Positions 7,250 through 37,654 of a DNA stretch of 64,000 bases are shown piece by piece (the stretch's first letter is position 1; each line of letters starts with the position of its first letter). The stretch is from Gigantopelta aegis (Eukaryota). The position numbers and the translations under genes are program-made. The stretch spans positions 67,754 to 131,753 of the forward strand of contig NW_024532772.1 of NCBI RefSeq assembly GCF_016097555.1, in the 5' to 3' direction. A model generated the notes under the pieces. It worked only from the letters and a program-made list of their open reading frames with translations, was not told where the DNA came from and ran no database searches.

Positions 7250-7400
7250 AAGGGAGTAAATATTACTTCACCCCTATCATTATCTGTAATAACAAAATAA
7301 AACAAGAGTAAATATCACCTTGCCCCTATCATTATATGTGATAACAAAATTTAACAAAGAGTAAATATTATTTTTCTCTTATTAGAAGAGGGAATAAATG
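7250..7400. repeat. ~55-bp tandem repeat x3
   Basis: gagtaaatat...cccctatcattat...gtaataacaaaat repeated. Confidence 0.7.
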
Positions 7401-8858: not shown

Positions 8859-8920
8859 GTATATACTGTATTAATAACTACTTATAACAAGTTAACCACA
8901 CCCATTAATTTCCTCTTTAG

Positions 8921-9107
8921 TGGTGGTATTCAACGAGACTGGGAGGGACTTCCTCGAAGGTATTTCATTCCTGGTACAAAGGACTGGTGTTGTGCTTGTG
9001 TTAATGACAAAGACTTAGACAATCCTCACATTAAATTGTATCCTGGGTGTGCACCTAATGCTCCTAAATGCAAAGTCGATAAACAAAAAATGAGAGAGGA
9101 ACTCTGA
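8921..9107 (+). CDS. CYB5D2: neuferricin homolog exon 2 (C-terminal Cys-rich tail, stop at 9105-9107)
   Basis: Acceptor tcctctttag at 8911-8920. The phase-2 junction gives ...STN-S-GGIQRDWEGLPRRYFIPGTKDWCCACVNDKDLDNPHIKLYPGCAPNAPKCKVDKQKMREEL*. Confidence 0.65.
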
Positions 9108-9454
9108 AACTAAATATCATTGTATTAATGCTATTTATATGCTGCTGCTGTTTATAATGCAATTTCATTTAGGTTGGATAGTACAACCACAATAGTTGTC
9201 CGATATTCTTTCAATTTTTTGATGCAATTTCAATATCAAAATTGTGATAGTTTTCTCAAATAAGATAGTAATTAACATCATACAAGACTGACAGTGTATA
9301 CAAATAATATCTAAAAAGCCTTTGTTATATGAAGAACAAAATATAATAAGTGATAGTAGAAATAATAATGAACATACCCTAACTAAATGATATTATATAA
9401 TAGGTAATTATTACCTATTGTGTTAGCCAGGGATGAGACTTTATAATTTCTCTA

Positions 9455-9629
9455 CTCCTTTCTCCATAATCATATTGTAATTCTTCTCCAGGTGTTATGT
9501 TTCTTGTGGCCATGAGACAAAGGTATGGATGGTCGTCTACTGGAATTAATTTTGTTGTTACGTTTGCTGATGTTTTTGCTGTGGTTTAAAAGACGTCCAA
9601 ATCTTCCATTATCTTTTGTTGCATCAACA
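9455..9629 (-). CDS. KMT5A: KMT5A (SET8/PR-Set7)-like histone H4K20 methyltransferase, last exon (SET C-terminus). Frameshift at an A5 run near 9575
   Basis: VDATKDNGRFGRLLNHSK / TSANVTTKLIPVDDHPYLCLMATRNITPGEELQYDYGERSREIIKSHPWLTQ* closely matches the SET8 C-terminus ...RLINHSK..GEELLYDYGDRSKASIEAHPWLKH*. The two halves are in different frames. Confidence 0.8.
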
Positions 9630-9893
9630 CTAAAAATAAATAAAACATACTATACTAAATCTAGTATTTGAAACCAATTCCTATATGATAGTTTAGGAAT
9701 GAGGCTCCTTGATATATTGTAGACTCATTCCAAACCATTTTCCATTCTATTTATGCAAAAATTGTCATTTCACTATGTTAAGTTTCATACTGAATTGATA
9801 TTCCGGGAATGAGGTTGTTACAAGACCTTTAAATGTAGAGACTCACTCCCAGGCTCACAATCCAGCATGAAAGTATAAGAATGAATATATTAC

Positions 9894-10097
9894 CATAGTT
9901 TTTTATTCTTGTATTCAAAGTAGTACATATAACAGCCAATGGAAGTATCTCTCTCATAATCTTCCTCTCTCTTCTTTTGCCTCCTCAAAAAAGATACCAA
10001 TTCTCCAGAATACTCACAAACCAGTTCACCTTTTGAGAATGGTCTTGTAGCTACTACACCTCTCCCTTTACCTTCAACATCAACAGCCTATATATTG
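9894..10097 (-). CDS. KMT5A: KMT5A-like exon (SET domain N-terminal half)
   Basis: AVDVEGKGRGVVATRPFSKGELVCEYSGELVSFLRRQKKREEDYERDTSIGCYMYYFEYKNKKLC. Flanked by acceptor atatatag and donor GTAATA. Confidence 0.75.
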
Positions 10098-10265
10098 TAC
10101 ATTTATAATACATGTACATAGTAATTGTTGTATAAGGCCTTTAACACTGGTGTACAAAGGTACATACAATTTGTTATCTACTGGCTACTAAAAATAGAAT
10201 GATACTATTTATAGAACAACATAACCATCATGAAGCATAGTATAACACGATATAATGTCACTAAC

Positions 10266-10325
10266 TTCTAGTCCATCCTCAATTTTGTTCTTTAATTTGT
10301 AGACCACATGTTCAAACTTCTCTGT
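10266..10325 (-). CDS. KMT5A: KMT5A-like 60-bp exon
   Basis: TEKFEHVVYKLKNKIEDGLE between acceptor ttattaatag and donor GTTAGT. Confidence 0.6.
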
Positions 10326-10364
10326 CTATTAATAAGATAATGAATGTACATTACTCTCTGTCTG

Positions 10365-10374
10365 TCTGTGTCTT

Positions 10375-10407
<33 letters not shown>

Positions 10408-10420
10408 TTCTCTTACTTCA
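10365..10420. repeat. (CT)n/(CA)n compound microsatellite in a KMT5A intron
   Basis: ctctctctctctcacacacacacacacaca. Confidence 0.85.
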
Positions 10421-10489
10421 ATGTCTGATTTACATCTTCTTGTACTTCTTCTAACTGGAAAATGATCTCTTATACTTTGCTGTACAACT
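10417..10489 (-). CDS. KMT5A: KMT5A-like exon
   Basis: RVVQQSIRDHFPVRRSTRRCKSDIE matches SET8 ...KLTDFYPVRRSSRKSKAELQ. Donor GTAAGA. Confidence 0.65.
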
Positions 10490-10592
10490 CTATTATAAGT
10501 TAAGACAATATGCTATAATATTTTGAACAAACTTGTTAATAATAACTATGAAATATTTGATATAGTAAACTATATTTGATATAACAGATTGC

Positions 10593-10594
10593 TG

Positions 10595-10625
<31 letters not shown>

Positions 10626-10640
10626 TATATATATAACAGT
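10593..10640. repeat. (AT)n microsatellite
   Basis: atatatatatatatatatatat. Confidence 0.85.
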
Positions 10641-10707
10641 AGTATTAGCAGGGGTCTATGATTTCAAGGATCTCATTAAGTGATTGGGCAGTTGGAGTAA
10701 TATTTAC

Positions 10708-11177
10708 CTTCTCTGTGGTTTTGTCTGATCATCTTTCTTGGGTATTGCTGCCTGTGCTTTTTGTTTTGGTCTCTCTCTACGACTACGAACACTAGATGAA
10801 GGTTGGATCGTTGATGATGGCAATGTCTTCTTAGTGTGAGGTATGTCTTTTTGTTTCTCTTGTCCTGTTTTCCTGGTAACTATAGCAACGTCTGTTGATG
10901 ATGGCAACGTCTTCTTAGTGTGGGGTATGTCTTTTCGTTTCTCTTGTCCTGTTTTCCTGGTAACTATAGCAACATCTTTATCAGATAAGGTTAAATCAAT
11001 CACAGTTTCAGTTTCAGATTTCTTTTCAATTGAAGCAGCTGCTACTGGTTGTCTGTCTGTCTCCTTCTCCTCGGAGATCATGATACATTCACCTGTTGTT
11101 GATTTTTTAGAGGAACATGGCACATCATCTTGGAGTGTGTCTTTAGTTGTGTCCTGATGTTTAGTAGAGCCAGACAT
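10708..11177 (-). CDS. KMT5A: KMT5A-like first coding exon (basic, low-complexity N-terminus) with an internal 84-bp tandem duplication
   Basis: ORF MSGSTKHQDTT...KPQRR ending at a GTAAAT donor. DVAIVTRKTGQEK(R/Q)KDIPHTKKTLPSST occurs twice. Confidence 0.65.
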
Positions 11178-11266
11178 TCTTATTATCCTTTAAAGAGACC
11201 CGCCTAAAATTATTAATTATTATTAAAACCACGCCTTTTAAATAATTAGAGAAGGGCGTGGTTTTG
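11178..11266. promoter_or_regulatory. 89-bp head-to-head intergenic region (putative bidirectional promoter) with an 11-bp inverted repeat AAAACCACGCC(N19)GGCGTGGTTTT
   Basis: The minus-strand KMT5A-like ATG is at 11175-11177 and the plus-strand dehydrogenase ATG at 11267. IR arms at 11225-11235 and 11255-11265, plus gacccgcc at 11204-11211. Confidence 0.5.
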
Positions 11267-12508
11267 ATGGCTACGGAAGAAACTTCGGATACAGAAAGAG
11301 ATGGGCATTCTTCGTCCAAGTATAAGAATACTTCAGAAAACAAAAAGAAAGTAGCAGCGAAACAGGACAGAGACTGCCTTTGTGGTATGAAAGTTGTCAT
11401 TACTGGAGGCTGTGGTTTTCTGGGCCTCCATCTTGCTCGACTGCTTTACCAAAAGGTTCAAGACATTCATATAATGTTGTTTGATAAGAGTCCTGCTGAT
11501 GAAGCTGCCATGAATTTTATTACTAATGGAGTACCTAATGGAGATCGTGTCAGTTATGGTGGAAGACACAATGACATTATGATTCTAGAACATCTCAATG
11601 CAGCTTTTCAAGATGCTGATGTTGTCTTCCATTGTGCTGCAATAACATCCTCGTGTGCTAAAATAGATTTCAATAAAAAAATGCAGAGAGTCAATGTAGA
11701 AGGCACAGCAAATGTTGTCAAAGCTTGTCAGAGACAAGGTGTACGAGCACTAGTCTTCACTGGTGACTTAGCTCAGGTTTTAAGATCTGGACTTCATGTA
11801 CAAGAGGGTATCACTGAAGATGTCATAGTTCGTGATCATGAGGAATTAGTAATGGATCATTTTGGACGTTCAAAGACTGAAGCAGAGAGGAAAATCCTCC
11901 AAGCAAATGGGTTCAAGACAACCTTATACACGTGTTCAATACGTTGTCCTCCTTTATATGGAGAAAATGATACCACATTCTTACCAAATGCTTTCTGGGC
12001 TGCTGAAAAGTTCTACAAATATTTTCCTTTAATTGGGCATCCTTCTGTGAAAATGACTGCTATGTATGTGGAAAATGCAGCCTGGGGTCATATATGTGCA
12101 GCAAAGAAGCTCCTGGATGAAAATGCCAGACTTAGAGTTGGTGGTCAGTTTTATTATGTTACAGATGACACTCCTTCTGAAAGCTACAGTGATTTCTTTA
12201 AGCGATTTCTTAGCTCTCTTGGTTATAGGACTTTACCTATTCGTCTTCCTGTCCTCCTTCTTACATGTTTTACTTACTTAATGGTTGTCTTGATTGTATT
12301 CTTAGTGGCTGTCTTTCAATATAAAAGTCTGGGTCGTGCTTTAAACTATCGTCGTCAACTTAAAATGCTATCTACCAGTCATACTGTTTCAAGAGAAAAG
12401 GCAAGGATTGAGTTGGACTATGAGCCTCATGTTCCATTTGATGAGGCATTCAAACAGTCTTCTCGATGGTATCTTTTTAACATTGGAATGCTTCTAACTA
12501 GAATATGA
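11267..12508 (+). CDS. intronless 3beta-hydroxysteroid dehydrogenase/isomerase-family (extended SDR, NAD(P)-binding) protein with C-terminal transmembrane helices
   Basis: VVITGGCGFLGLHLARLLY Rossmann motif, DVVFHCAAITS, and hydrophobic LPIRLPVLLLTCFTYLMVVLIVFLVAVF. The GTG-started ORF at 11258 actually begins at ATG 11267. Confidence 0.75.
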   Translation: MATEETSDTERDGHSSSKYKNTSENKKKVAAKQDRDCLCGMKVVITGGCGFLGLHLARLLYQKVQDIHIMLFDKSPADEAAMNFITNGVPNGDRVSYGGRHNDIMILEHLNAAFQDADVVFHCAAITSSCAKIDFNKKMQRVNVEGTANVVKACQRQGVRALVFTGDLAQVLRSGLHVQEGITEDVIVRDHEELVMDHFGRSKTEAERKILQANGFKTTLYTCSIRCPPLYGENDTTFLPNAFWAAEKFYKYFPLIGHPSVKMTAMYVENAAWGHICAAKKLLDENARLRVGGQFYYVTDDTPSESYSDFFKRFLSSLGYRTLPIRLPVLLLTCFTYLMVVLIVFLVAVFQYKSLGRALNYRRQLKMLSTSHTVSREKARIELDYEPHVPFDEAFKQSSRWYLFNIGMLLTRI

Positions 12509-14586: not shown

Positions 14587-14926
14587 TAGTACTATATGAC
14601 CACACCAAGCTTAGTATAAAACATGTTACACTAGCTAGACAAATATTATTTCTTTATCTGTTATTTTCTAGACTATACAGCTACTGAAGATGAAATATGT
14701 CAAATAGAACAAATGAGTAAGGAAGGGAAGGAATGTTGAATATTAAATTTTAATGCCTAATATGATAAACATGTTTGTATGTATAATATATCATATATCT
14801 TTAATATTACAATACTATCCTACCTTATTTAGGAGAGAACATAGAAGTGGCACAAGAAAGTGAAAGTGGGGTGATAATGACAAGTAGATTAAGAGACATC
14901 AAAGAAGATCAGTATCATCTGAGGGA

Positions 14927-16065
14927 ATGAAATGGCATAATTATAATGTTGTTATTACTGGAGGTTGTGGTTTTCTGGGCCTCCATCTTGCTCGACTGCT
15001 TTACCAAAAGGTTCAAGGCATTCATATAATCTTGTTTGATAAGAATCCTGCTGATGAAGCTGCCATGAATTTCATTACTAATGTAGGATATAATAAAGAT
15101 CGTGTCCGTTACAGTGGAAGACACAATGATATTACGATTCTAGAACATCTCAATGCAGCTTTTCAAGATGCTGATGTTGTCTTCCATTGTGCTGCAATAA
15201 CATCCTCATTTGCTCAAATAGATTTCAATAAAAAATGCAGAAAGTCAATGTAGAAGGCACAGCAAATGTTGTCAAAGCTTGTCAGAGACAAGGTGTACGA
15301 GCACTAGTCTTCACTGGTGACTTAGCTCAGGTTTTAAGATCTGGGCTTCATGTACAAGAGGGTATCACTGAAGATGTCATAGTTTCATGATCATGAGGAG
15401 TTAGTAATGGATTGTTTTTGGACGTTCAAAGACTGAAGCAGAGAGGAAAGTCCTCCAAGCAAATGGGTTCAAGACAACCTTATACACTTGTTCAATACGT
15501 TGTCCTCCTTTATATGGAGAAAATGATACTACATTCTTACCAAATGCTTTCTGGGCTGCTGAAAGATTTTGTAAGCATTTTCCTTTAGTTGGACATCCTT
15601 CCGTAAAAATGACTGCTATGTATGTGGAAAATGCAGCCTGGGGTCATATATGTGCAGCAAACAAACTATTGGATGAAAATGCCAGACTTAGAGTTGGTGG
15701 TCAGTTTTATTATGTCACAGATGACACTCCTTCTGAAAGCTACAGTGATTTCTTTAAGCGATTTCTTAAATATCTTGGTTATAATGTGTTACCTATTCGT
15801 CTTCCTGTCCTCCTTCTTACATGTTTTACTTACTTAATGGTTGTCTTGATTGTATTTTTAATGGCTTTTTTTCGATATAAAAGCCCGAGTCGTGTTTTTT
15901 AATTATCGTCGTCAACTTAAAATGTTATCTATCAGTCATACTGTTTCAAGAGAAAAGGCAAGGACTGAGTTGGACTATGAGCCTCACGTTCAATTTGATG
16001 AGGCATTCAGGAAATCTTCTAGATGGTATAATTTTAACATTGGAATGCTTCTAGACATAATATGA
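14927..16065 (+). pseudogene. tandem paralog of the 3beta-HSD-family gene, disrupted by several indels
   Basis: MKWHNYNVVITGGCGFLGLHLARLLYQKVQGIHIILFDKNPADEAAMNFITN... is about 90% identical in nucleotides to 11390-12508. Breaks at 15236 (A6 against A7), 15372-15390 and others. ORFs 14927-15253 and 15609-15902 are its pieces. Confidence 0.7.
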
Positions 16066-16161
16066 CTTTTATTAATATATTTTTATGCGTTAATCTGTTT
16101 CATTTTTTATTAATAACATAATTTTATACTATGGGTGTTGTAGTTTTGACTGATCGCTAGA

Positions 16162-16229
16162 ATGATGTCTTCTGAGGAATGGAGGAGTCTAGGAGACACA
16201 GAAAAACGGCAGGCATTTGTCAGAAAAAC
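16162..16229 (+). CDS. MED15: MED15-like (KIX-domain, Q-rich) locus 1, exon 1
   Basis: MMSSEEWRRLGDTEKRQAFVRKT then donor. Resembles the Mediator-15 KIX start (..DWRS..FRQK.V..I). The same ~400-bp exon1-intron-exon2 module recurs at 26875-27280 and 33700-34100. Confidence 0.5.
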
Positions 16230-16399
16230 GTAGGAGTAATTCAAAAGATGTGTGAACAAAGAGGTGAGTAATTTGATGATATATAATCGAAAGACCCACT
16301 CGTTGTTAAGTTACTTTATAACAAGCTTTGATGTTGATATCTCTCACAAACTGACCTTTAAAATAGAACTATTACTATATTGTTATTGTTCTTGTTCAG

Positions 16400-16487
16400 T
16401 GCTGCGGCAGTGAGGATATTTCCTGAAGTCTTAACTCGTAATCCAGGAGATATAGAAGCTACTATCTACAATAAAGCTAAATCTGAG
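16400..16487 (+). CDS. MED15: MED15-like locus 1, exon 2 (KIX continuation)
   Basis: AAAVRIFPEVLTRNPGDIEATIYNKAKSE between acceptor cttgttcag and donor GTAAGT. Confidence 0.55.
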
Positions 16488-17692
16488 GTAAGTCTCACTT
16501 TGTATATTGACCACTAATGATTACTGTATTGTTTAATATTGTAAATATAACAATATATAATTGTATATTGTATATATTATATAATCTTATCATAATTGAA
16601 ATATTTAAGACTTCTTTGAGCGAAGATACCAGACTATCTTTCGCCATGGAACATGGTAGACTGGGGACAAGACTAAAATAATTAATAAATGTCCCTATAT
16701 GAACTAGGGCACTAAATAGAACACTGTTATTTATTTAGACTTTTCAAAGTATATATCTTTGCTAACTTTTTTACAGAAAGAGTATATGAACTTGGTATAT
16801 AGGATAGTTTTAGCCATTAAATTAGGCCTGTACGATATTCGGATAGATTTAGAACCTCAAGACAGTATGTTCTAATATATATATGGTCTGCTTTTATCAC
16901 TAGAAGCATTGGATACGTCTCAACCGGCATTATAGAGAATGTCTTCTTACGATCAGGACCGGAGGAGGCCCGAAAATGTCTGGTTTCAAGACTTATCTAA
17001 TAATTGATTTGGGAGATACTAACTTTATAGTGAAATATAATTATACCAACTATAAAGTTACAAAGTTTGGATAGTTAGTAACATTGTCTATACTGATCAT
17101 GATAGAATACTATAGAAATGTAACTATATAGGTACCTAGAGAAGCAAAACAGTTTGAGCCTTCAAATTAGTCCCACTGTAAATAATGAAATTAACTATGG
17201 TCACATCCATCATCATACTGAACACTTGCAGCTGGAGTTATATGTTTTGGCAGTTAATGGATGTGGTTTATTTTATATGGTACTTTCAATTATCGCATAC
17301 AACAATAATTATGTTAAATCACAAAACATACTATATATACCATTTGGTTCAAATGATTGTAGGACAGTATGCCAGGCAATAAAAATTGATGCACATACCA
17401 TCCTTCAAGAGATATAATTGTAACCAAAAGGAAGAGTGTATGGCTCTATTATCATATATACATGATCATGAGCAAACAGTATATTCCTGTTTTGCATAAT
17501 TGCTTAGAATGATAATGAAACTATGACATTGCTATAGTAACACTTCCATGTGGATATCTTATGATGTTAACTTACTATGTATAGCTGGCTGTGTTATCTT
17601 CCATCTTTTGGTTACAAATGCATGTGGGCCTATGAACATACATTAATTTTATATGTACATGATAGGACTGTTACTATTGTGGTATTTCTCCT

Positions 17693-18888: not shown

Positions 18889-21800
18889 GAGGCGAAATGA
18901 TGCAAAGACCGCAAGGAATGAGGGAAAGGAATCGTGTGAACCATAATGTCCCGGTAGATCCTACAGGCCTAGGATATTCCAGCTGTCCACCTGGAATGCG
19001 TCTAATGCATCCACCAGTACATTATGAACAACCTGCTGGTATGCGTATGGTAAACCAACCTACTCCTCAGCTGACAATGCACAATATGACACAGCAACAG
19101 GAACAACAGGAATGTCAATATCCACGGCAACCAGATAGATGGCAACCACAATCAGGTAGATTTATAATTCTTTTACTCAATCACTGATTTTGTCAGTTCA
19201 TACACTTTTGTAATAACAATAATTTATAACAACACAGTTTCAAATCCATATATTGAAAGTCTCATACAAGCATTAGTCTCACACACATATACTTTAAAAG
19301 TATTGTACCCTACCTTAAAAATCTAATGTGTACCTCCTCAGCCATACATTAATAGTCTCATACTAATACATATATACAGGAAGTGAAATGATACAAAACC
19401 CACAAGAAATGACAGAAAGGGATCATGTGGACCAGAATATTCATGTAGCTCCTACAGGATATTCCAACTGTCCAACTGGAATGCATTTAATGCATCCACC
19501 AGTACATTATGAACAACCTCCTGGTGTGCGTATGGTAAACCAACCTACTCCTCAGCTGACAATGCACAATATGACACAGCAACAGGAACAACAGGATGTC
19601 AATATCCACGGCAACCAGATAGATGGCAACCACAATCAGGTAGATTTATAATTCTTTTACTCAATCACTGATTTTGTCAGTTCATACACTTTTGTAATAA
19701 CAATCATTTATAACAACACAGTTTCAAATCCATATATTGAAAGTCTCATACAAGCAGTAGTCTCACACACATATACTTTAAAAGTCTTGTACCCTACCTT
19801 AAAAATCTAATGTGTACCTCCTCAGCCATACATTAATAGTCTCATACTAATACATATATACAGGAAGTGAAATGATACAAAACCCACAAGAAATGACAGA
19901 AAGGGATCATGTGGACCAGAATATTCATGTAGCTCCTACAGGATATTCCAACTGTCCAACTGGAATGCATTTAATGCATCCACCAGTACATTATGAACAA
20001 CCTGCTGGTATGCGTATGGTAAACCAACCTACTCCTCAGCTGACAATGCACAATATGACACAGCAACAGGAACAACAGGAATGTCAATATCCACGGCAAC
20101 CAGATAGATGGCAACCACAATTAGGTAGATTTATAATTCTTTTACTCAATCACTGATTTTGTCAGTTCATACACTTTTGTAATAACAATAATTTATAACA
20201 ACACAGTTTCAAATCCATATATTGAAAGTCTCATACAAGCATTAGTCTCACACACATATACTTTAAAAGTATTGTACCCTACCTTAAAAATCTAATGTGT
20301 ACCTCCTCAGCCATACATTAATAGTCTCATACTAATACATATATACAGGAAGTGAAATGATACAAAACCCACAAGAAATGACAGAAAGGGATCATGTGGA
20401 CCAGAATATTCATGTAGCTCCTACAGGATATTCCAACTGTCCAACTGGAATGCATTTAATGCATCCACCAGTACATTATGAACAACCTCCTGGTGTGCGT
20501 ATGGTAAACCAACCTACTCCTCAGCTGACAATGCACAATATGACACAGCAACAGGAACAACAGGAATGTCAATATCCACGGCAACCAGATAGATGGCAAC
20601 CACAATCAGGTAGATTTATAATTCTTTTACTCAATCACTGATTTTGTCAGTTCATACACTTTTGTAATAACAATCATTTATAACAACACAGTTTCAAATC
20701 CATATATTGAAAGTCTCATACAAGCAGTAGTCTCACACACATATACTTTAAAAGTCTTGTACCCTACCTTAAAAATCTAATGTGTACCTCCTCAGCCATA
20801 CATTAATAGTCTCATACTAATACATATATACAGGAAGTGAAATGATACAAAAACCCACAAGAAATGACAGAAAGGGATCATGTGGACCAGAATATTCATG
20901 TAGCTCCTACAGGATATTCCAACTGTCCAACTGGAATGCATTTAATGCATCCACCAGTACATTATGAACAACCTCCTGGTGTGCGTATGGTAAACCAACC
21001 TACTCCTCAGCTGACAATGCACAATATGACACAGCAACAGGAACAACAGGAATGTCAATATCCACGGCAACCAGATAGATGGCAACCACAATCAGGTAGA
21101 TTTATAATTCTTTTACTCAATCACTGATTTTGTCAGTTCATACACTTTTGTAATAACAATAATTTATAACAACACAGTTTCAAATCCATATATTGAAAGT
21201 CTCATACAAGCAGTAGTCTCACACACATATACTTTAAAAGTCTTGTACCCTACCTTAAAAATCTAATGTGTACCTCCTCAGCCATACATTAATAGTCTCA
21301 TACTAATACATATATACAGGAAGTGAAATGATACAAAACCCACAAGAAATGACAGAAAGGGATCATGTGGACCAGAATATTCATGTAGCTCCTACAGGAT
21401 ATTCCAACTGTCCAACTGGAATGCATTTAATGCATCCACCAGTACATTATGAACAACCTCCTGGTGTGCGTATGGTAAACCAACCTACTCCTCAGCTGAC
21501 AATGCACAATATGACACAGCAACAGGAACAACAGGAATGTCAATATCCACGGCAACCAGATAGATGGCAACCACAATCAGGTAGATTTATAATTCTTTTA
21601 CTCAATCACTGATTTTGTCAGTTCATACACTTTTGTAATAACAATAATTTATAACAACACAGTTTCAAATCCATATATTGAAAGTCTCATACAAGCAGTA
21701 GTCTCACACACATATACTTTAAAAGTCTTGTACCCTACTTAAAAATCTAATGTGTACCTCCTCAGCCATACATTAATAGTCTCATACTAATACATATATA

Positions 21801-23016
21801 CAGGAAGTGAAATGATACAAAACCCACAAGAAATGACAGAAAGGGATCATGTGGACCAGAATATTCAGCTCCTACAGGATATTCCAACTGTCCAACTGGA
21901 ATGCATTTAATGCATCCACCAGTACATTATGAACAACCTGCTGGTATGCGTATGGTAAACCAACCTACTCCTCAGCTGACAATGCACAATATGACACAGC
22001 AACAGGAACAACAGGAATGTCAATATCACGGCAACCAGATAGATGGCAACCACAATCAGGTAGATTTATAATTCTTTACTCAATCACTGATTTTGTCAGT
22101 TCATACACTTTTATTTATAACAACACAGTTTCAAATCCAGTCTCATACAAGCATTAGTCTCACACACATATACTTTAAAAGTATTGTACCCTACCTTAAA
22201 AATCTAATGTGTACCTCCTCAGCCATATATTAAAGTCTCATACTAATACATATATACAGGAAGTGAATAACTGGTATGCAACCACCTATGATACAAAACC
22301 CACAAGAAATGACAGAAAGGGATCATGTGGACCAGAATATTCATGTAGCTCCTACAGGATATTCCAACTGTCCAACTGGAATGCATTTAATGCATCCACC
22401 AGTACATTATGAACAACCTCCTGGTGTGCGTATGGTAAACCAACCTACTCCTCAGCTGACAATGCACAATATGACACAGCAACAGGAACAACAGGAATGT
22501 CAATATCCACGGCAACCAGATAGATGGCAACCACAATCAGGTAGATTTATAATTCTTTTACTCAATCACTGATTTTGTCAGTTCATACACTTTTGTAATA
22601 ACAATCATTTATAACAACACAGTTTCAAATCCATATATTGAAAGTCTCATACAAGCAGTAGTCTCACACACATATACTTTAAAAGTCTTGTACCCTACCT
22701 TAAAAATCTAATGTGTACCTCCTCAGCCATACATTAATAGTCTCATACTAATACATATATACAGGAAGTGAAATGATACAAAACCCACAAGAAATGACAG
22801 AAAGGGATCATGTGGACCCAGTAGCTCCTACAGGATATTCCAGCTGTCCACCTGGAATGTGTCTAATGCATCCACCAGTACATTATGAACAATCTCCTGG
22901 TATGCGTATGGTAAACCAACCTACTCCTCAGCTGACAATGCACAATATGACACAGCAACAGGAACAACAGGAATGTCAATATCCATGGCAACCAGATAGA
23001 TGGCGACCACAATCAG
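18889..23016 (+). CDS. MED15: array of 10 tandemly duplicated symmetric exons (261 bp, phase 1-1) spaced about 485 bp apart, each encoding an 87-aa M/H/P/Q-rich module
   Basis: For example exon 20349-20609 lies between acceptor atatacag and donor GTAGAT. It encodes (G)SEMIQNPQEMTERDHVDQNIHVAPTGYSNCPTGMHLMHPPVHYEQPPGVRMVNQPTPQLTMHNMTQQQEQQECQYPRQPDRWQPQS. Units begin near 18889, 19380, 19864, 20349, 20835, 21320, 21805, 22280, 22765. Units 21805 and 22765 carry small deletions. Confidence 0.7.
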
Positions 23017-23187
23017 GTAGATTTATAATTCTTTTACTCAATCATTGTATTTTTGTATGATAAAAATACAAACAAGCCTTAGTTTTATACCCATACAGTA
23101 AACGTTTCATACCCATGCATTGAAGTCTCATAGTCATTAATTAAAACTTTGATTCTTGTGTACACAGGAGGTGAAATGATGCAAAGG

Positions 23188-24340
23188 TCACGAGGAATGA
23201 AGGAAGGGAATTATGTGAACCATAGTATGCCAAGAGGTGTACGTCAACCAGATCCAACAGGATATCCCAGGTTTCAACCAGTAATGGATCTAATGCAGCC
23301 ACCAGCACATTATGGACCACATTCTGGTATGGGTATGCCAAGAATGATAAACCAACCTACTCCTCGGCCTGCATTGTATAACATGCCACAGTCAGGAGGC
23401 TCTGTGATGCAAAGACATCCACATATGGGAAGTCACCCTAGAATGGTTCGTCCACCTATGAACCCTCCTCCATTCATGACAAGGGGAATGCAACTAGGAA
23501 CAACTGTAATGCAGCTTTCTGGAGAACATTGTCAAATGATGACTCATCCTTATACTAGTGTAGTCAGCTCTTTACATCATCCTCCAAGTCATTTGCCAGT
23601 GGTGTCTCACTTTCTCTCTGAAACCCCTTCGACATTCTTTTCCAAAATGTTTCAAACACCGCAAAGACCCATTAGTGGTCCTCGATCATCTGTATCTCAT
23701 CTAGTTATTCAAGACAAATCAAAATCACTCCTCATAAACGAAATCTACACTCTCAATGTGATAAACTAAGCAAAAGACCAATTAATCCTCTCCTATCTTT
23801 ACCATTATCATCAGCTTCATTAGTGAATTCTGAAACTGTTATTGTATCTCCAAATGATTCATCTGGTTTTGTTTATAATAGTGTAGATGTGCCAATATCA
23901 TCAGAGCATCAATATGAAAGAAAGAAATCCATTGAAGAGGAACAGAAAAATGGCAGAAAATCACCAAAACAAGTGAAAACAAAAGAACCTCCTGACATAG
24001 CGCAATGTAAGATCACATCTAGTGCTTTTAAAAATGTTTCTTCTTTGGTGGTGGTATCATCAGATCATGAACATAATGTAATGACTACTCAAGAATCATT
24101 AGTTAGGCAGGGTCATCTATATTTTAAAGACCGTTCAAGGAAGCAATCAAATGAAATTGCATGTTGTAGTGATACAATCAATCAACAGTCATGGAAGGAG
24201 GGATGGGCTGATGGGTGGATGAATGGATGGATGGATGCATCAAAAGGTCTACCTCTGAATCCTGAAATACCGTTCAATTATAAAAATTTACCTCCAGAGC
24301 TAACAAGACCATCATCACTACCAAATTTTCAATTAACTAT
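23188..24340 (+). CDS. MED15: downstream M/P/H/Q-rich low-complexity exons of locus 1
   Basis: GGEMMQRSRGMKEG...MMQRHPHMGSHPRMVRPPMNPPPFMTRGMQLG... Paralogous to 27741-28195 and 34568-35158. Confidence 0.45.
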
Positions 24341-25160: not shown

Positions 25161-25837
25161 AAAAGTTTTGCGACTTTCTTCAAAACAAAGTTGATTATAG
25201 AATTCTTAATATATTGGTGCTAAAATGGGGACTGATTGTAAATTAGCTTACCCCTTTCTTCTGTAGAAAAGAGGGTCTGGAATTAGACTCTTTTAATAAT
25301 TTATATTATAAAATCATACATTCTAGGTTATTTATTTGAAATTTATAATCTAAACCTAACATTATAGTAAAAACAGTTTCTATAGAAACTATACAAGAAC
25401 TCCTAAAAGTATTATTCCAAATATGTATATAATAATTATCTGTATTTTTTGTTTTAAACAATAGCAAAATTTTTATACTTTTCTATTATTCTGTCAATCC
25501 GAAAATCAGTTCATTGCTGATGTTGGAAAAAATATTAACATTTAGATAGTGTGGTAATGAATGTTTAATATAGGGGGTGGTGCATTTTACGACCAGTTTA
25601 GAAATCATGATGTCTGTCACGGAATATCTGGACCCCCGAAATAATTGTTACCCGGAACAATTATTTCAAAGTTTTAAATGAAAGGAAACGGCCGCCTTTG
25701 AAATGTAGTGACCCCCTTTATATATTTCACACTTTTTTCAAGTTCTCTGTCAGATGCTAGTAACATATCATTGAGCGACCATAAAATGGCATGCTTGAGC
25801 GCTTGGTGTTACAGTAGATCTACTGGACGAACGGAGC

Positions 25838-26629
25838 ATGGACTCAGAAAGTGAAATCAGTACCACTGAGCCCGAAGACCTGATTTTAGATCTAGCCATC
25901 CATTATGCTGTACATCGCAGCTATCCACCAGGGTCGTCAAAGGAGAAAGCAGTACTTATTAATAATGGCTGGCTGACAGACAAGATCATCAATGAAGCTC
26001 AAAGTTTACTGAAGAAAAAATACCCCTATGTTAATGGACTTCAGGATGTGACACTAGGACTACTTTGTCATTTGCTATACAAACAGAGGAGTTTGTTCAA
26101 TTTTTCATACTGGACATGCCCACTGGGTAACAGTTACCAACATTGGTTGCAAAGATGGGGAAATCAACATCTTCGATAGCTATCCCCCAGTCACTACAAC
26201 ACACCTACTAGACCAGATTGCAGCACTGCTTGCAACTCCAAGATCTACCAGATATATGGACACCCAACTGCAGTGTGGTTCAACAGACTGTGGCATCTTC
26301 GCCATTGCATTTGCTGCAACCCTAGCAAATGGGATTAACCTGGGGCTTTCCATTTTGATCAGCCACAAATGCGAAAGCACTTGATACACTGTCTAGAAAC
26401 ACAGTGTCTCTCAGACTTTCCAGTTCAGCGAAGAAGGAGAAGAGGAAATGTAGTTAAGCATTCATATGCTCTGTACATCTACTGTTCCTGTAGAATGCCT
26501 GAACATCCAGGATGTACAATGGTGCAGTGCTCTACCTGTGGAGAGTGGTTCCATGTTGGTGTATGTGTGACTATACCCACTGAAATTTTAGACTCATCTA
26601 CAAAGTGGTCCTGTAACAAGTGTATTTAG
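25838..26629 (+). CDS. intronless Ulp1/SENP-like (C48) cysteine protease with a C-terminal PHD-type zinc finger. Frame slips at a T5 run near 26104
   Basis: LINNGWLTDKIINEAQSLL (the WLND-type motif), FHTGHAHWVTVTNIGCKDGEINIFDSY (His and Asp), QCGSTDCGIFAIAFAATLANG (Gln and Cys), then CSCRMPEHPGCTMVQCSTCGEWFHVGCVTIPTEILDSSTKWSCNKC. Confidence 0.6.
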
Positions 26630-26881
26630 TATAGTGTCAACACATTGCAACATAGAGATTATTAATTATTCATGGTGGTCTTTATGTTTTAGTTTTGTTG
26701 AAATATTAGTTCCAGGGGGGGGGCAATATATTATGAAAAAGAAGGACCTAGGGGGGATTTATTATTTCAGAGAGGGTTCATATATTTCAACATGCCACTG
26801 AAATATAAGTTCCAGGGGGATCAAATATTGCAAAATATTAGGACCGGGGGAACAAATTAAGGGGAACCAATTTTTTGTGAC

Positions 26882-27193
26882 ATGTCTTCTGAGGAATGGA
26901 GGAGACCAGAAAAACGACAGGCAATTGTTAGGAAAATGTAAGAGTAATATTAAAAGATGTATGGACAAATAGATGAATGAACTGATGATATTGAATCGAA
27001 AGACCCACTTGTTGTTAAAGTTATATTATAACAAGCTTTGATGATATTCTTACAAACTGACCTTTAGAATAGAATTGTTACTATATTGTTATTGTTCTTG
27101 TTCAGTGCTGAGGCAGTGAGAATGTTTCCTGGAGTCTCAACTTGTAATCCAGGAGATGTAGAAGCTACTATTTACAACAAAGCTAAATCTGAG
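26882..27193 (+). CDS. MED15: MED15-like locus 2, exons 1-2 (KIX)
   Basis: MSSEEWRRPEKRQAIVRKM..., then intron, then exon 27106-27193 AEAVRMFPGVSTCNPGDVEATIYNKAKSE. Confidence 0.5.
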
Positions 27194-27740
27194 GTCAGTC
27201 TCACTTGTATATTGACCACACTACTGATTACTTTATTGTTTAATATTGTAAAGATAACAATACATCATTAACACAGTATTTATTGTTATATCAAAAAAAT
27301 ATATAATTATAACAAATATAAAAAATATCACAACAATCACTATAATATGAATACAAAATGTTTAATTATAATAAATTACAGTTTAATAATTGGGACATTA
27401 AATAGAACATCTTAATGGGTCTATATTTTTCCTAATCTATTTTATAGCATGAGTATATGAACATGGTTGGTAAGATAGATTTGTCTATTAAGCATAGAGG
27501 AATGGGACTGATCCAACAAACAACAACATCCTGCACAGCAACCAGGCGGATGGCAACCACAACCAGGTAGATAGATAAATGTTAAAGATCTTGTACCCAT
27601 CCAATGAAAGTGCGATACCTATAAATTAAAACTCTCACACACCTGTTCAGTAACCTCTTACTCATACATTAAAATGTCTCATACTCATACACTTGAACTC
27701 TCATACCCATTATTAAGAGCTTTCATTCTCATGTGCACAG

Positions 27741-28195
27741 GGGCACATTGTAGACCACATTCTGGTATTGGTATGCTAAGAATGATAAACCAACCTACTC
27801 CTCAGCCTGCAATGTATAACATGCCACAGTCGGGAGGCCGTATGATGCAAAGACATCCACATATGGGAAGTCACCCTGGAATGGTTCGTCCACCTATGAA
27901 CCTCCCTCCATTTATGACAAGGGGAATGCCACCGGGACAATGCCTCCAATGAGACCTGTAATGAATATGGCCTCGATGCAGGGTTCTGGGAAAACAAGTG
28001 GTGACAGCATTACCTAATCCATATATCACTGGAGTTGACCCTGCCCATCAACCTCCCGGCCATCCATCTGGTGCTCCCTCCCCTTATTCCAGAAGTGCTT
28101 CCTCGTCTGTTTATCAACCCTCTCATCCAACAGCTTCTTCAGGTGCACCTCCTCCACAACCACATCCTCCTCAGACCAATTCTCCAAAGCCTCGT
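27741..28195 (+). CDS. MED15: MED15-like locus 2, Q/P/M/S/Y-rich exon with two apparent 1-nt frameshifts
   Basis: ...MINQPTPQPAMYNMPQSGGRMMQRHPHMGSHPGMVRPPMNLPPFMTRGMPPG / MRPVMNMASMQGSGK / VTALPNPYITGVDPAHQPPGHPSGAPSPYSRSASSSVYQPSHPTASSGAPPPQPHPPQTNSPKPR, then GTAAGT. Confidence 0.45.
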
Positions 28196-28282
28196 GTAAG
28201 TTTGATAATTACCAATACATGAACGATCCTCCTTTTCCATATAGCCTCATATCCCATATCTCATATCCCATATCCCATCTCC

Positions 28283-31354: not shown

Positions 31355-33699
31355 TAAGCATTTCATTTGTAAATTATAGTTTAACTCTGGTGCTCAAATT
31401 AAAACTACGAGACGAGGGAATATATTGAAGAATCATTATTGGATGAGTTACCTACACTGAAGTTGTTCCATTACACTTCACAAAGACAGAGTTCTTAAAA
31501 TTACTCAAATATCTTGTATTGTCGCTCCTATTTCATCAACATTGATTTATTCCTGTTGTTTATCAGTGAAGGAGAAGAAGAAAGAAAAGTTAAAGAATGA
31601 TAATATAGAAACAAATGATTATTAAGTTTCAAAATCGGGAGTAGTACCTCAGGTAAATAAACACAAAGCTAATAAATTACTCTAATAAACAGCAACAACG
31701 ACACTATTAATGACTAATCAATGGCCACTGCATGATTGTATGAGGGTTGTCTGTCTGTTTAGATATATGACAAATATAACATGTAGGTAATAATACAATA
31801 ACAATAATATATAATATGTCAACTTTGTAGTTGTTGTAATCCATTTCCACCAATCGGGACCAAATAAAAACCAGCTGGTAAAAGCATTAGCTACTACAAC
31901 TAACTAAATAATTTTGGATATATTGTCATGTATCTGTTGAATATTATATGTCTGCATAGTGTGACTCGTGAATGTTGATTGCTAAAAGTAAACAAGAAAG
32001 AGGAAGAGGAATTTTAGATGAGGATTCTGAAGTTTAATATTTCTATTCTTTCTAGGGTGTATTTCTGGCAGAGTAGTTGTGGGTTGTAAACAGGAGAAAT
32101 TATCCAAAGTTCTCTGTAGATTTAAAAGTAGAACAAATGAGACAAGCAGTGGAACTCTTCTATCATGATCTCAGTGCAACCACTTGTACTAATTGAAGAA
32201 TTTCAATGGATTGAAGTACATTTTTTTGGTGACAGAGAAAACGTGTCATGATTTAAAGAAGCTATCAGTGAAACTATATTATCTTGTGCTGATCTACTTG
32301 CTTATGATTTTTCAATAGTGGGAATTGTTATTTCAGTGCCCTGTCGGCTACCACATGAGGAAGGGTTCTTACCCATTTCATCATTTTCCGTTATCAATAA
32401 AGAATCCCTTATCATCAATTGCCCATATGAAAAGCGTTTTTTTTTTTTTGCGTTCAAGATTATCACCTAACCAACAATGCTGGTTTAACCAGGGTTAAGT
32501 TAGTAGTCAAAGTTAGTTACATATTTCAATTGTAATTGACATATGTACAAGATAGCAGGTTGAGTATTGGTCATGTTTGTAAGTATCCTCCATGTCAATC
32601 AATTGTGTATTAACTTGGTCCTTCTATGCTTGTAGACACTTGCCAAATTGTTTCTAAAGCTCTGACAAACAGAGATGCTTTGACACTACTAATGCCTATT
32701 AAGTATGAATCGATTTTTAATGTTTTCATCCATGTTTTTGTGTGTGCCTCATGACAATGCTTTTACATTATAAATAATACAACTATAAGTAACTGGAAAA
32801 CTGTCACAACATATTGATTACAGACTCATACTACATTAACATATATGAGTGATTTGATAACTATATAGTTAGTTTTTAACAAGAGTGGCAGAAGGTCAAA
32901 GTTAACATGAACAGACTCTTAAGTCTTTGATTTTGCAGGTTGATGTTAACAATAATAATACTGTACTACATACTACAGAGGTAAGTTTGATATCTCTCAT
33001 TTCACTTTGTACTAGATGCAGTTCAGAAATCTTTCAGGAATTATTTGCTATTACTGATTTTGCAGGGTTGTACTATTACTGATTTGCCAATACCATTGGT
33101 AAGTATATTAAAGTCATCAGTATAATTATATAAACTTATAATGCCTTTTCTTTCAAAGATCCTCTTAATATATTTCAAACCTATTCTGCTAATCTTTTGT
33201 GATGCTATTGAGCTGATCCCCTTCGTATTGTTAATAGGCTTATTTCTCATAGACTGGTACGACCAAGTATTAGAAAATGAATATTACAACAATGACTGGT
33301 ACAGCATATGACCAAAGCTAGCAAAATTACTCAAAAGTATTGAGAGCTATTTAGAAGGCCAGTAATGAACAAGTCAAATTTCTACAAAATCTTTGTGACT
33401 TTCTTCAAAACAATGTTGAAGATAGAACTCTTAATGATATTGGTGCTAATATGAGGAAACTGTTGTAAATCACTTTTCATAAAGTCAGTGGAAAAGCTAT
33501 CACCTCTCTTCTCAGAAGGCATGGCTACACAAGATTACCACTTGACATTATCTGTTGAGTCAATGCAAGAGAGATATTAGAAACATATTATTTATTATAA
33601 TAGACACAATTTTGACAATTTTACTGAATGGGTGTGGCCTCGGTGGTGATTATATTTGTGGGGTGGGCATTCCATGACTACACAACTATTCCATGACTA

Positions 33700-34349
33700 A
33701 GAAATCATGATGTCTTCTGAGGAAGGAGGAGACCAGAAAAAGCGACAGGAATTGTCAGGAAAATGTAAGAATAATATTAAAAGGCCCACTTATTGTTAAA
33801 GTTACATTTATAACAAGCTTTGATGTTGATATCTCTCACAAACTGACCTTTAGAATAGAACTATTACTATATCGTTGTTTGTTATTCTTTTTGTTCAGTG
33901 CTGATCCCCCGGGCAGTGAGGATGTTTCCTGAAGTCTTAACTCGTAATCCAGGGATGTAGAAGCTACCCTATCTACACACAAAGCTAAATCTGAGGTAAG
34001 TGGTCACTTTGTATATTGACCACTAATGATTTACTTTATTGTTTACATATTGTAAATATACCAATACATCATTAATTAGTATCATATTGGTATGTCTAAA
34101 ATATATATGGATTATAACAAATGTAAAAGATATCATATCAACAGTAATGTGAATAAAAAATACCCTCATTTAATGATAATTAATAGATTTACTGATAATA
34201 ACAAGATTGTAAGATTAGTAATTGGGACATGTAATAGAAACGTACTTAATGGGTATATATTTTTGCTAATCTCTTTTATAGCATGAGTCTTATGAACAGG
34301 GTTGGTAAGATAGTTTTGTCTATTAAGCATAGAGGAATGGGACTGATTG

Positions 34350-34380
<31 letters not shown>

Positions 34381-35673
34381 CTCCACAGCAACCAGGTGGA
34401 TGGCAACAACCAACAGGTAGAACATAATTGTTAAAGATCTTGTAACCCATCCATGAAAGTTCTCGATACCTATAAAATTAAAAACTCACACTATTCATTT
34501 AACCTCTACTCATACATTAAAAAGTCTCATACCCATTCATACAACTTTTTTTCATTCTCATGTACACAGGAAGTGAAATGATTCAAAAGACCACAGGGAA
34601 TGATAGAATGGGATCATATGAACCAGGGCCTGACTGGAGGTGTACCTCAACCAGATCCAAACAAGGATATCCTGGGTTTCAACCAGGAAGCCACCCAATG
34701 CAACCACATTATGGACAACATTCTGGTATGGGTATATTGCCAAGAATGATGAACCAAACCTACCTCAGTCTGTATGTATAACAATGCACAGTGGGGGGGA
34801 GGGCCTATGATGCAAAGACATCAACATATGGGAAGTCACCCTGGAATGGTTGTCAACCTATGAACCCCCTCCATTAATGACACAAGGGAATGCCACCGGG
34901 ACCAATGCTCCTAGGAGACCCATAATGAATATGACCTCGATGCAGGGTTCTGGAGACACAGTGGTGACGGCATTACTAATCCATATACACATGGAGTTGA
35001 CCCTGCCCATCAACCTCCGGCCATCCATCTGGTGCTCCCTCTCCCTTATTCCGGAAGTGCTTCTCGTCTGTTTATCAAACCCCTCATCCAACAGCTTTAC
35101 AGGTGCACACCTCCTCCAACACCACATCCTCCTAGACCAATTCTCCAAAGCCTCGTTGTAAGTTGATAATTACCAATACATGAACGATCCTCCTTTTCCA
35201 TATAGCATCCTCAAGCACCTTCCCATCGTCAGCCCTTATCCCACCCCCCCCCCCCCCATCTCCCAATACTCATTGGAATCCAAATTCTCATCAATATATA
35301 CCAGCCCTGGTCAAACCTCAGGCCAGCCATCTATCACACCAGAAGCCAATACAGTGTTCTTGTTTAAAACTTCAGGAAAACTACGCCTTATATACCACTG
35401 TTAGCTAGAATGATTGACAGATTAAATCGAGCTAAAGGATCAAGTGATGAGAAGAAGTCGGTTGACCAGCTCTCAAAGTTAAAAAACAGTCTTTACAATG
35501 TTGCAATCAAAAAATATGAGTAAATAGATATAAACTTATATGATGGAATTAGCATTTTGAGTTAATGAAGTTTGGGAGTGTTAATAACATCTTCTTTCCT
35601 TTAGGTTCCTTTGCAAAACTTTAGAAAAGTGCCATCAAGCTCTTAAGAAACTCTTTGTTGAGAAAGAAAACAG
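33700..35673 (+). pseudogene. MED15: MED15-like locus 3: KIX exons, a Q/P-rich exon and two conserved Med15 C-terminal exons, with multiple frameshifts
   Basis: Exon 35376-35518 LKLQENYALY / IPLLARMIDRLNRAKGSSDEKKSVDQLSKLKNSLYNVAIKKY(E) and exon 35605-35673 FLCKTLEKCHQALKKLFVEKEN match Med15 ...YLDKLKQLSKYIEPLRRMINKIDKNEDRKKDLSKMKSLLDIL..KRCPLKTLQKCEIALEKL. Frames break at 33935, 34790-34870 and 35390. Confidence 0.55.
35240..35256. repeat. poly-C tract (C14)
   Basis: cccaccccccccccccccatctc. Confidence 0.8.
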
Positions 35674-37654
35674 GTAACGCTTTGATAATCTAAGATCATC
35701 CACTCTCTATCTTTCCCCCCCTCTCTCTCTCTCACACACACACAGGAGTACCTTCATTGGCTCCTTCCACATCTACAGCTCCAACTAAACAAGTGACTCT
35801 TTGATCGCTCCATCGACTCCCAATCTCGTCCTCCTATCCCATCCACTCCACCCATCTCATCCACTTCGCTACACAATTTCAAAAATGCTACATTCGCCAC
35901 CTCCCCTCTCCTCGTATCTCTATCCTACCCTTGATTCTGATGAAGATCTCTGATAGGTTACACCAGAGAGAGAGCAAAGCTTGAAGAACAAAGTAGTACT
36001 GAACATTACTCTCTATCCTGTTCTAACACGTTTGTCCTTTAGTTTCACAGTCTTTTCACTATGCCTTGAAGAGAGAAATTAATAATTTGAGACACTTTAA
36101 AGTTAAGCAGATACAACCCTTAACAAGCACGAAATGGACGCCACTCAGTAAACACTAGAATGTACTTTAAGTAAGTATCGGAAGAAAATCTCTCTCTCTC
36201 TCTCTCAGTCTCTTTCTCTCACAGTCTCTCTCTTCTCATAAAAAAGCTAACATCTCATTTTCCTTTTTTTAGTTGATGACAGCTTACCAAACAAATGCTC
36301 CTTTAATTGTTAATATCCCACGTGGAATATCCTCAGTTCTCCGAGTGTCAACTTAACAGTACTATTGCAAAACAAAGATGACTCTCCTGCTATCACAGCT
36401 GTCATTGAGGGTTTGTGGAGAAAGAAGCTGTTAAAGGAGAAACTATCACATTGTGGACATAATTATACACTAACTTCTACTTTTACAAAATTGGGAAGTG
36501 CTATAATTGAAGTGGTAGCGAGGAGATTTGAGTGATGATAAAGAATAATTGGTTTTTTTGTTTAGTTTTTGTTTTTGTTTTTGTTTACTAAACAAGCTCA
36601 AAAATTAATTTCAATTTTTTCCCCTATTGTAACTGCCATTGTCCAATTGTATCAATATTGTTATGATAATTAAAAGTACTTGTTAAACGTTCTATCAGTT
36701 AAATGGTATAGAGAGGATACTTCAGGTCAATGAAGTCTAAATGTTTCAGTGTGTATACCTATCTGAATAATTTGAGTTAGTAATCATCCCAACTCCAAAG
36801 GAACAGTAGATGCTTATCAACAGACAACTAACACTGTTTCCAAAGTTTGAAATCCCTCTGATGGTTGTAAATGCTAGAAATACGAGAGTACTTACAGCAG
36901 AGTGTCTGATTTTAAACTTTTATCGTTAATAGTCTTGGCAATCTCAGTTCCTATTATAAGTGACAATATTTTCTTATTTGAGACCAAATTCCTTTCGGAC
37001 TATCCATAAACCATTACTCTCATTCAGTCTTTTGTTAACACTCAATGTATTGATTAAATTTTCTTCATAGGACAGGACTATGGATAATGGATATGACAAC
37101 TCCCCTTTCCAGAAAAATGTACCATTGATGATGTATCATCAAATACTTTCCCACGTACATGTTTGGCTATAATAGGTACATGTACAGGATCATGTGGACA
37201 GACGTGGGTACCAAAGCATCCATTAAGGTTAGATAAACATTTAGAGTGTGTTTTTTGAACCATTTGGAAAGCAATACCTTATCATTTGATCATAGTGTAA
37301 ATATGTAATTAAATATATGTTGTTTAAAAGAAATTTAGCTTAATACTTATATGATATTTAGTTCTTTGTGGCTCCTATTAATTTAAATAATGATTTAAAA
37401 ATTAATATATCTAATGAGAGTTTAACAAATGTGTCATTTAGTTTAGACAAATTCAATGGGAAAAGTTCAGTAAGAGATGTTTGGTTAGTCAAATCGATAC
37501 TGTAGAAGTGGGGAAAAAATTATAAATTGTCTTTATATATTTTTACCTTTTGAAACTATCCACTCAGCATCTTTCAAGGCTTGTGAATAATTTGTTGAAT
37601 TCTTTCAGTATCTCTCTCATCAGAGTAAACTACGAAACTCCTATACCAAACAAC

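Follow-up and report, generated by a model that had tools for sequence, protein, structure and literature searches.

The question raised by this locus is whether a stretch of Gigantopelta aegis DNA that appears to encode an intronless fusion of a Ulp1-like cysteine protease and a PHD finger is a gene of the host or the remnant of a mobile element. The stretch lies in a window of 64,000 nucleotides (the whole piece of DNA that was analysed, to whose first letter positions refer unless a locus is named), and the data described here indicate that window positions 25615-26882 are very probably an internally deleted, mutationally decayed and non-autonomous copy of Ginger1. Ginger, which stands for "Gypsy INteGrasE Related", is a cut-and-paste DNA transposon.

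Both protein domains were detected in the stretch by Pfam, Peptidase_C48 with 24.6 bits (E=2.6e-5, cut-off 20.7) and PHD with 29.1 bits (E=1e-6, cut-off 24). The profile search proposed in the earlier note was thus positive for both domains, and the protease motifs and the Cys4-His-Cys3 finger described there are all present, at the following positions:

25967-81 (GWLTD), 26121-26 (H-W), 26172-80 (FDS) and 26271-26300 (Q...DCGIF), + strand: catalytic motifs of the protease, from translation

26480-26623, + strand: Cys4-His-Cys3 PHD finger (YCSC...CNKC), from Pfam and from PDB sequence matches to the SHL, EBS and PHF2 PHD fingers

These motifs do not share one reading frame. The 264 codons from ATG to TAG (25838-26629) that had been described as an ORF are not open, being interrupted by an in-frame stop at 26177-79, and the ORFs found were 25838-26179 (113 aa) and 26369-26629 (86 aa), which lie in a common frame and are split by that stop. 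Three-frame translation placed the N-terminal part through GLQDVTLG in frame 1, "TTLSFAIQTEEFVQ" in the second frame and the His/Asp/Gln/Cys core (IFHTGHAHWVTV...INIFDS...QCGSTDCGIF) in the third, with the PHD finger returning to frame 1; the continuous reading had been stitched together by eye over frameshifts. An exact look-up of the 113-aa ORF in a public sequence collection gave no match.

The limits of the inserted DNA were defined by the comparison of filled with empty sites and by alignment of the two ends. The features are:

25611-25614, + strand: left copy of the 4-bp target site duplication (TSD), TGTC, from comparison of the empty and filled sites

25615-26882, + strand: whole element, 1268 bp, with termini TGTCAC...GTGACA, assigned below to Ginger1 as an internally deleted, non-autonomous copy

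25615-25670, + strand: imperfect 5' terminal inverted repeat (TIR) of about 55 bp, starting TGTCA (TGTNR) and including a GGACCCCC run, from alignment of the 5' end to the reverse-complemented 3' end

25638-25667, + strand: palindrome GAAATAATTGTT-ACCCGG-AACAATTATTTC in the 5' subterminal region, with 12-bp perfect arms and a 6-nt loop

26709-26882, + strand: 3' subterminal repeats and 3' TIR, ending GTGACA, from motif search and TIR alignment

26883-26886, + strand: right copy of the 4-bp TSD, TGTC, from the filled site and the TSDs of the other loci

The segment 24949-28372 is repeated within the window, as the earlier note had stated, with self-comparison locating paralogues at 33166-35712 (B) and 16182-16562 (C). 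Both are continuous at the insertion point (...catgaTGTCttctgaggaa...), and the 1268 bp insert sits exactly where they read uninterrupted. The empty site, catgaTGTCttctgagg, was found in paralogue B (33700-33725), in paralogue C (16160-16185) and in a third sequence from another assembly of the same species (ENA ERZ21830300), which was reached via a host 3-beta-HSD-like ORF that is 99% identical. This third sequence (L006, contig ctg715763l) is the positional counterpart of the window locus on another haplotype, with 95.8% identity to the window across 2.4 kb upstream of the insertion site. In the window, the filled site reads ...catgaTGTC/TGTCACGG......TTTGTGACA/TGTCttctgagg, i.e. ...TGTC/TGTCAC...GTGACA/TGTC..., where the slashes mark the ends of the element. 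Insertion polymorphism of the window copy is probable. When both terminal 22-mers were searched in the window with up to 3 mismatches, they matched the element itself only, and no second copy was detected. Among the neighbouring host ORFs, Pfam gave nothing useful except a distant PP2C at 61.7 kb.

The hairpin and the flanking G/C tracts mentioned in the earlier note are real and belong to the ends of the element; the 12-bp perfect arms and 6-nt loop of the hairpin stand as described, while its position (given as 25625-25655) was 13 nt off. Loci of this palindrome type number 3 in the 64 kb, versus about 0.15 in Markov simulations. The palindrome is kept in two of the full-length copies described below (L001 and L002), with longer arms (GAAATAATTGTTCC...GGAACAATTATTTC; 15 bp in full-length copies), and its DNA fold z-score is -4.0 in the window copy versus -7.4 in the full-length copies. 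Relative to L001 and L002, the ends of the window copy carry several changes in homopolymer length, one of which weakens the palindrome. At the other end of the element, the motif G[GT][AT]CC(N0-2)GGGG occurs four times within the last 175 bp (starts at 26709, 26744, 26809 and 26841), and a search of both strands found none outside the element in the 64 kb. The TIR alignment showed C-run counterparts of these G-run repeats at the 5' end in inverted orientation, and the subterminal repeats are plausibly binding sites of the transposase.

Copies outside the window were fetched via cluster members. Together with the window copy they amount to seven sequences at six independent loci, two of the sequences being alleles. 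Full-length copies of 3.38 kb were found at four loci of ERZ21830300 (five sequences). The copies outside the window are:

L001: full length, 3381 bp, TSD GGCC

L002: full length, TSD GAAC

L007 and L008, alleles of one locus: full length, TSD GACC/GAGC

L010: full length, TSD GTCC

L009: a second, independent deletion derivative in which parent positions 1-222 are joined to 2503-3381, TSD GGCG

All seven sequences start with TGTCAC and end with GTGACA, and each locus has its own 4-bp TSD, which is perfect at five of the six and differs by one base at the sixth (GACC/GAGC). The copies share 99.3-99.6% identity among themselves. L009 is itself broken up by an insertion encoding a reverse transcriptase. 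A 6-bp TSD, ATGTCT, with GTCAC/GTGAC ends (Polinton-, GingerRoot- or IS3EU-like) was considered for the window site and rejected, since the five other loci set the ends one base outward and give 4-bp TSDs. The earlier note had reasoned that a single copy with syntenic orthologues would speak for a domesticated host gene; the presence of multiple copies with their own TSDs, and of empty sites, points instead to a transposon, in line with the suggestion made there that the stretch is possibly transposon-derived.

Alignment of the window copy to the full-length copy L001 showed how the shorter form is built. BLAST matched window 25614-25949 to L001 7777-8114 and window 25947-26882 to L001 10211-11158, both with 97% identity, so that the 5' part of the element corresponds to L001 7778-8109 and the 3' part to 10211-11158 of the 3381-bp copy. 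Missing from the window copy are the zinc finger and the DDE core, together with each of the four parental introns. The window copy is intronless because the deletion took all four parent introns, and the apparent single-exon gene is in fact the C-terminus of a Ginger1 transposase joined to its first 36-37 codons and then frameshifted. The corresponding features are:

25838-25946, + strand: remnant of transposase exon 1, comprising the start codon and the first ~36 codons (MDSESE...YPPGSSKE), which matches the N-termini of P0061 and of the L001 8001-8438 product (Integrase_H2C2)

25944-25949, + strand: deletion junction with AGCAGT microhomology (6 nt), at which 2101 bp of the parent are gone (L001 8110-10210), from exon 1 to exon 5

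25949-26629, + strand: remnant of transposase exon 5 with the Ulp1/C48 domain, the PHD finger and the stop codon, from alignment to intact copies and Pfam

When the stitched protein was used as a query, the matches comprised many unnamed relatives and P0061, a protein of 145 aa that shares only the first 32 residues with it and contains an integrase zinc-binding domain. The contigs of P0061 and of the best Ulp1 match both carry four ORFs on the same strand, which correspond to Integrase_H2C2, two rve-like pieces and C48 plus PHD.

In the parent element these parts are assembled in one reading frame. Conceptual splicing of L001 removes four predicted GT-AG introns of 46, 77, 98 and 128 bp (L001 8343-8388, 8635-8711, 9372-9469 and 9584-9711) and joins five exons into an uninterrupted ORF of 851 aa; the GT..AG dinucleotides are retained in all five full-length sequences (four loci), of which only L001 is free of frameshifts. 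Pfam detected Integrase_H2C2 (72 bits), rve (41.9), Peptidase_C48 (25.3) and PHD (24.4) in the spliced protein, and the order of its parts is H2C2 zinc finger, DDE (rve) core, GPY/F, Pro-rich linker, Ulp1 and PHD. The D, D and E residues occur in the contexts GMDFVGP, TTDQGTEF and NGLDERLN. Downstream of the core, the GPY/F motif WQGPFVI of L001 aligns by eye with WMGPYCI of an Ephydatia homologue. In the YPYY region upstream of the zinc finger, Y29-P30 and a downstream G-E-V-F-L were seen, with no confident alignment. The protein is collinear with the annotated Ephydatia muelleri protein P0093 (INT+C48+PHD; E=1e-81 and 2e-42 for the two halves). From this conceptual translation the integrase and the Ulp1-PHD part are predicted to form one polypeptide, and the protease-PHD unit, which had been read as standing alone, is part of a larger integrase-like transposase in the parent.

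Searches of the PDB with the Ulp1 part gave weak SENP matches only (E=0.035-0.3), so that a fold comparison was needed for the assignment. For this the AlphaFold model of the family member P0003 was used, which is 65% identical to the stitched window sequence (pLDDT 88). The model matched SENP1, SENP2, SENP5 and yeast Ulp1 (Foldseek probability 1.0, E~1e-6) as well as the PHF2 PHD finger. The catalytic H, D, Q and C were invariant or nearly so across 28 homologues, as in the SENP/Ulp1 proteases, and the PHD finger resembles those of PHF2, SHL and EBS in sequence and fold. Unlike all of these proteins, with which sequence identity is only 15-19%, the domains here form the C-terminal end of a transposase.

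The window copy itself has been altered further. Alignment to intact copies revealed three 1-bp deletions (after 26060, 26098 and 26330, in runs of TT, AAA and GGGG) and a 9-bp in-frame deletion after 26249, and about 17 substitutions were counted relative to L001 and L002. The frameshift sites are short homopolymer runs, and assembly error is formally possible there. To judge from its sequence, the window copy is non-autonomous, decayed and non-coding.

A different reading of the same stretch is that it encodes, or did so recently, a working truncated Ulp1-PHD mini-protein expressed from the transposon promoter, as a regulator or a step towards domestication, the frameshifts being assembly errors or very recent. 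In its favour, the reading frame continued across the exon junction left by the 2101-bp deletion, codons for the catalytic His, Asp, Gln and Cys and for the PHD cysteines have all been preserved, and each of the three frameshifts falls in a homopolymer run. However, long-read sequencing seldom errs in runs as short as these (2-4 nt), and the 9-bp deletion and the substitutions come in addition. Moreover, no protein spanning the deletion junction was found among 5.8 billion sequences, and L009, the one further deletion derivative observed, was broken at other points, so that this form has not visibly spread. A functional mini-protein is thus very unlikely, and the stretch is better regarded as a decayed transposon copy.

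The assignment of the element to Ginger1 was based on its structure. Ginger1 elements have been defined by a 4-bp TSD, TGTNR ends, TIRs of 40-270 bp, a length of 2.6-7 kb and 0-4 introns, with a transposase that resembles Gypsy integrases, contains YPYY, H2C2, DDE and GPY/F motifs and ends in an OTU or Ulp1 domain (Bao, Kapitonov & Jurka 2010, PMC2836005). Among the Hydra magnipapillata elements described in that study, Ginger1-9_HM (3,758 bp) encodes Ulp1 and PHD, and Ginger1-5_HM has 4 introns (PMC2836005). The G. aegis family agrees with the Hydra elements in its 4-bp TSD, its TGTNR and TG...CA ends, a TIR length of about 55 bp within the described range, a parent element of fitting size with one intron-containing gene for an H2C2/DDE/GPY-F protein ending in Ulp1 and PHD, and the occurrence of deleted, non-autonomous copies with unchanged ends. 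It differs from them in its short imperfect TIRs with multiple G-run subterminal repeats, in its host, which appears to belong to another animal lineage, and in its closest named relatives, which are from the sponge Ephydatia (46% identity), and the window copy differs further in lacking the transposase core.

Another difference from the Hydra elements concerns the target site, since CCGG or CCGT/ACGG make up 99% of the Hydra Ginger1 targets (PMC2836005). The targets used here were TGTC, GGCC, GAAC, GACC, GGCG and GTCC, so that none of the six TSDs, a small sample, matched CCGG or CCGT/ACGG, and a loose G-N-N-C pattern fits four of the six. The CCGG/CCGT rule derives from Hydra families and may not hold for Ginger1 as a whole.

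Sequence similarity of the integrase to Ginger1 relatives and to other integrases was also compared. The integrase half is 45% identical to a Hydra "gypsy retrotransposon integrase-like protein 1", and in ranked similarity the core is 34-37% identical to Gypsy pol integrases and 32% to vertebrate (fish) GIN1. Because the core is nearly equally similar to Gypsy and GIN1, the Ginger1 assignment rests on element structure rather than phylogeny. GIN1 and GIN2, vertebrate host genes derived from Ginger1, have a homologous H2C2 and DDE region to that of the parent protein, but they are single-copy host genes without TIRs or TSDs, whereas the window feature is a transposon copy without the integrase region.

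A further reading is that the stretch is a fragment of some other element with a Ulp1 or integrase domain, such as a KI-MULE, a Polinton/Maverick, GingerRoot or a Gypsy LTR retrotransposon, of which it would be the integrase end. In favour of this, the integrase resembles Gypsy pol integrases, MULEs can carry Ulp1 and Polintons a related cysteine protease, and the window site alone can be parsed with the Polinton- or GingerRoot-like 6-bp TSD mentioned above. MULEs produce TSDs of 9-10 bp and Polintons of 6 bp, and Polintons have AG...CT ends and carry polymerase and capsid genes. The KI-MULEs of plants and Hydra share with the present family only that they are DNA transposons carrying a clan CE Ulp1 protease domain, and their Mutator transposase, long TIRs and 9-10-bp TSDs were not seen here. 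GingerRoot has a 6-bp TSD and lacks the HHCC and GPY motifs (PMC6839031). GingerRoot, Polintons and MULEs were set aside on account of the 4-bp TSDs, the TG...CA ends, the single gene and the occurrence of the HHCC and GPF motifs. With regard to Gypsy and Polintons, no reverse transcriptase, RNase H, LTRs, polymerase or capsid genes were found in the 3.38-kb unit, whose sole gene is the transposase. Derivation from one of these elements is accordingly highly improbable, and Ginger1 remains the assignment of choice.

That the stretch is a free-standing or domesticated single-exon host gene for a Ulp1-PHD protein is scarcely credible. Both domains do exceed the Pfam cut-offs and the start at 25838 and stop at 26629 share a frame, but the frame contains a stop, the catalytic core lies in other frames owing to the three 1-bp deletions, TIRs and a TSD bound the stretch, the site is empty in the paralogues and the other haplotype, and the N-terminal 36 codons are those of the parent's integrase exon 1. 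The earlier observation was thus partly confirmed and its interpretation partly supported.

The way in which the element moves can be outlined from what is known of the integrase family. The transposase would bind the TIRs and subterminal repeats, excise the element and integrate it with a 4-bp staggered cut, which would give rise to the observed 4-bp TSDs. The loss of 2101 bp at a 6-nt microhomology is what faulty gap repair or end joining would be expected to leave behind, and the deletion happened to place the Ulp1-PHD tail in frame behind the first ~36 codons. The three 1-bp deletions broke the fused frame later, and the window copy is predicted to yield no functional protein. With both ends kept, the most that is conceivable is its mobilisation in trans by an intact element, for example L001. 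In the full transposase, the fold match to SENP/Ulp1 and the discussion by Bao et al. 2010 suggest that the Ulp1-PHD part may act as a SUMO/ubiquitin-like deconjugase and histone-tail reader, at or after integration.

It is quite possible, though we would not go so far as to call it probable, that the family belongs to a still-active Ginger1 lineage whose integrase has been freed from the strict CCGG/CCGT rule. The intact ORF of L001, the high identity among copies, the empty site on the other haplotype and the absence of CCGG TSDs at the six loci are consistent with this proposal.

The window copy is an ordinary relic of a known transposon superfamily and not a host gene, and in annotation the stretch should be masked as a Ginger1 relic rather than listed as a protease/PHD gene. 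It also provides a worked example of the birth of a non-autonomous element, in that the parental copy is available along with the junction and its microhomology, the unoccupied sites and another, independent deletion derivative. The G. aegis genome contains an apparently intact autonomous Ginger1 with Ulp1 and PHD domains, and its non-CCGG TSDs bear on target choice by integrase-like transposases. If the target rule has indeed been altered, this family and the Hydra elements would form a natural pair of related integrase-like transposases that differ in target specificity.

An internal-deletion derivative of Ginger1, independent of the window copy, was detected at a second locus:

L009 5829-11145: second Ginger1 internal-deletion derivative

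Here positions 1-222 of the full-length 3381-bp element were fused to 2503-3381, and the derivative was itself split at 6838-11049 by a 4.2-kb insertion. This insertion is probably a non-LTR retrotransposon, given that it codes for a reverse transcriptase (RVT_1) and has a (TAA)n tail at its end. The surroundings of the full-length Ginger1 copies (loci L001 and L010) were also rich in transposable elements, and the flanking ORFs matched DUF4371, DDE_Tnp_1_7 (piggyBac-like), MULE/ZSWIM and DDE_Tnp_4 (Harbinger-like):

L001 6733-7244 and 12119-12757: flanking ORFs
L010 1-284 and 2223-2456: flanking ORFs

The window itself contained several repeated features:

11258-12508 and ~14825-16068: tandem duplication, period ~3.56 kb, identity 89-94%
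18971-23053: tandem array of a 485-bp unit, 8.5 copies, 95% matches
23149-23769 and 27674-28222: Pro/Met-rich ORFs
715-1198, 1511-2072 and 5044-5220: 60-bp satellite blocks in opposite orientations
4063-4656: 30/60-bp minisatellite, within a 250-aa ORF (4076-4828, minus strand)

The duplication includes an intronless ORF similar to 3-beta-hydroxysteroid dehydrogenase/epimerase, together with ORFs downstream. Three copies of this unit were present in the related sample L005 (ERZ21862620), where 106-aa ORFs beside it weakly matched the Death domain. The 485-bp unit was partly similar to 27534-27829 and 34550-34893, beside the Pro/Met-rich ORFs listed above. The inverted repeats made by the opposed satellite blocks reach 150 nt (complementarity 93-96%), and the minisatellite codes for decapeptide repeats (...NQLPDEITPS...).

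The insertion point of Ginger1 in the window lies in a ATGATGTCTTCTGAGGAATGGAGG... stretch, with a GTAAG donor-like site ~60 nt further on. This stretch was found in three paralogous segments:

25605-25615 / 26883-26950: stretch interrupted by Ginger1
33700-33770: paralogue B, Ginger site empty
16160-16240: paralogue C, Ginger site empty

Because of this repetition, the stretch may be where exon 1 of a duplicated host gene begins; 1-nt indels were observed within this region of paralogue B.

The other haplotype supplied the matching locus:

L006 (ENA ERZ21830300, ctg715763l) 20447-21218: positional counterpart of window ~25600-25640

The 485-bp array was shorter in this haplotype, and its Ginger site was empty. 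A different element of ~756 bp, with perfect terminal inverted repeats of ~50 bp (ACAAGCCATTAGCGACAGAAGG...CCTTCTGTCGCTAATGGCTTGT) and an 8-bp duplication (GAATGGAG), was located 14 bp downstream of the empty site. Therefore, the same ~20-bp stretch has been struck by two unrelated DNA transposons.
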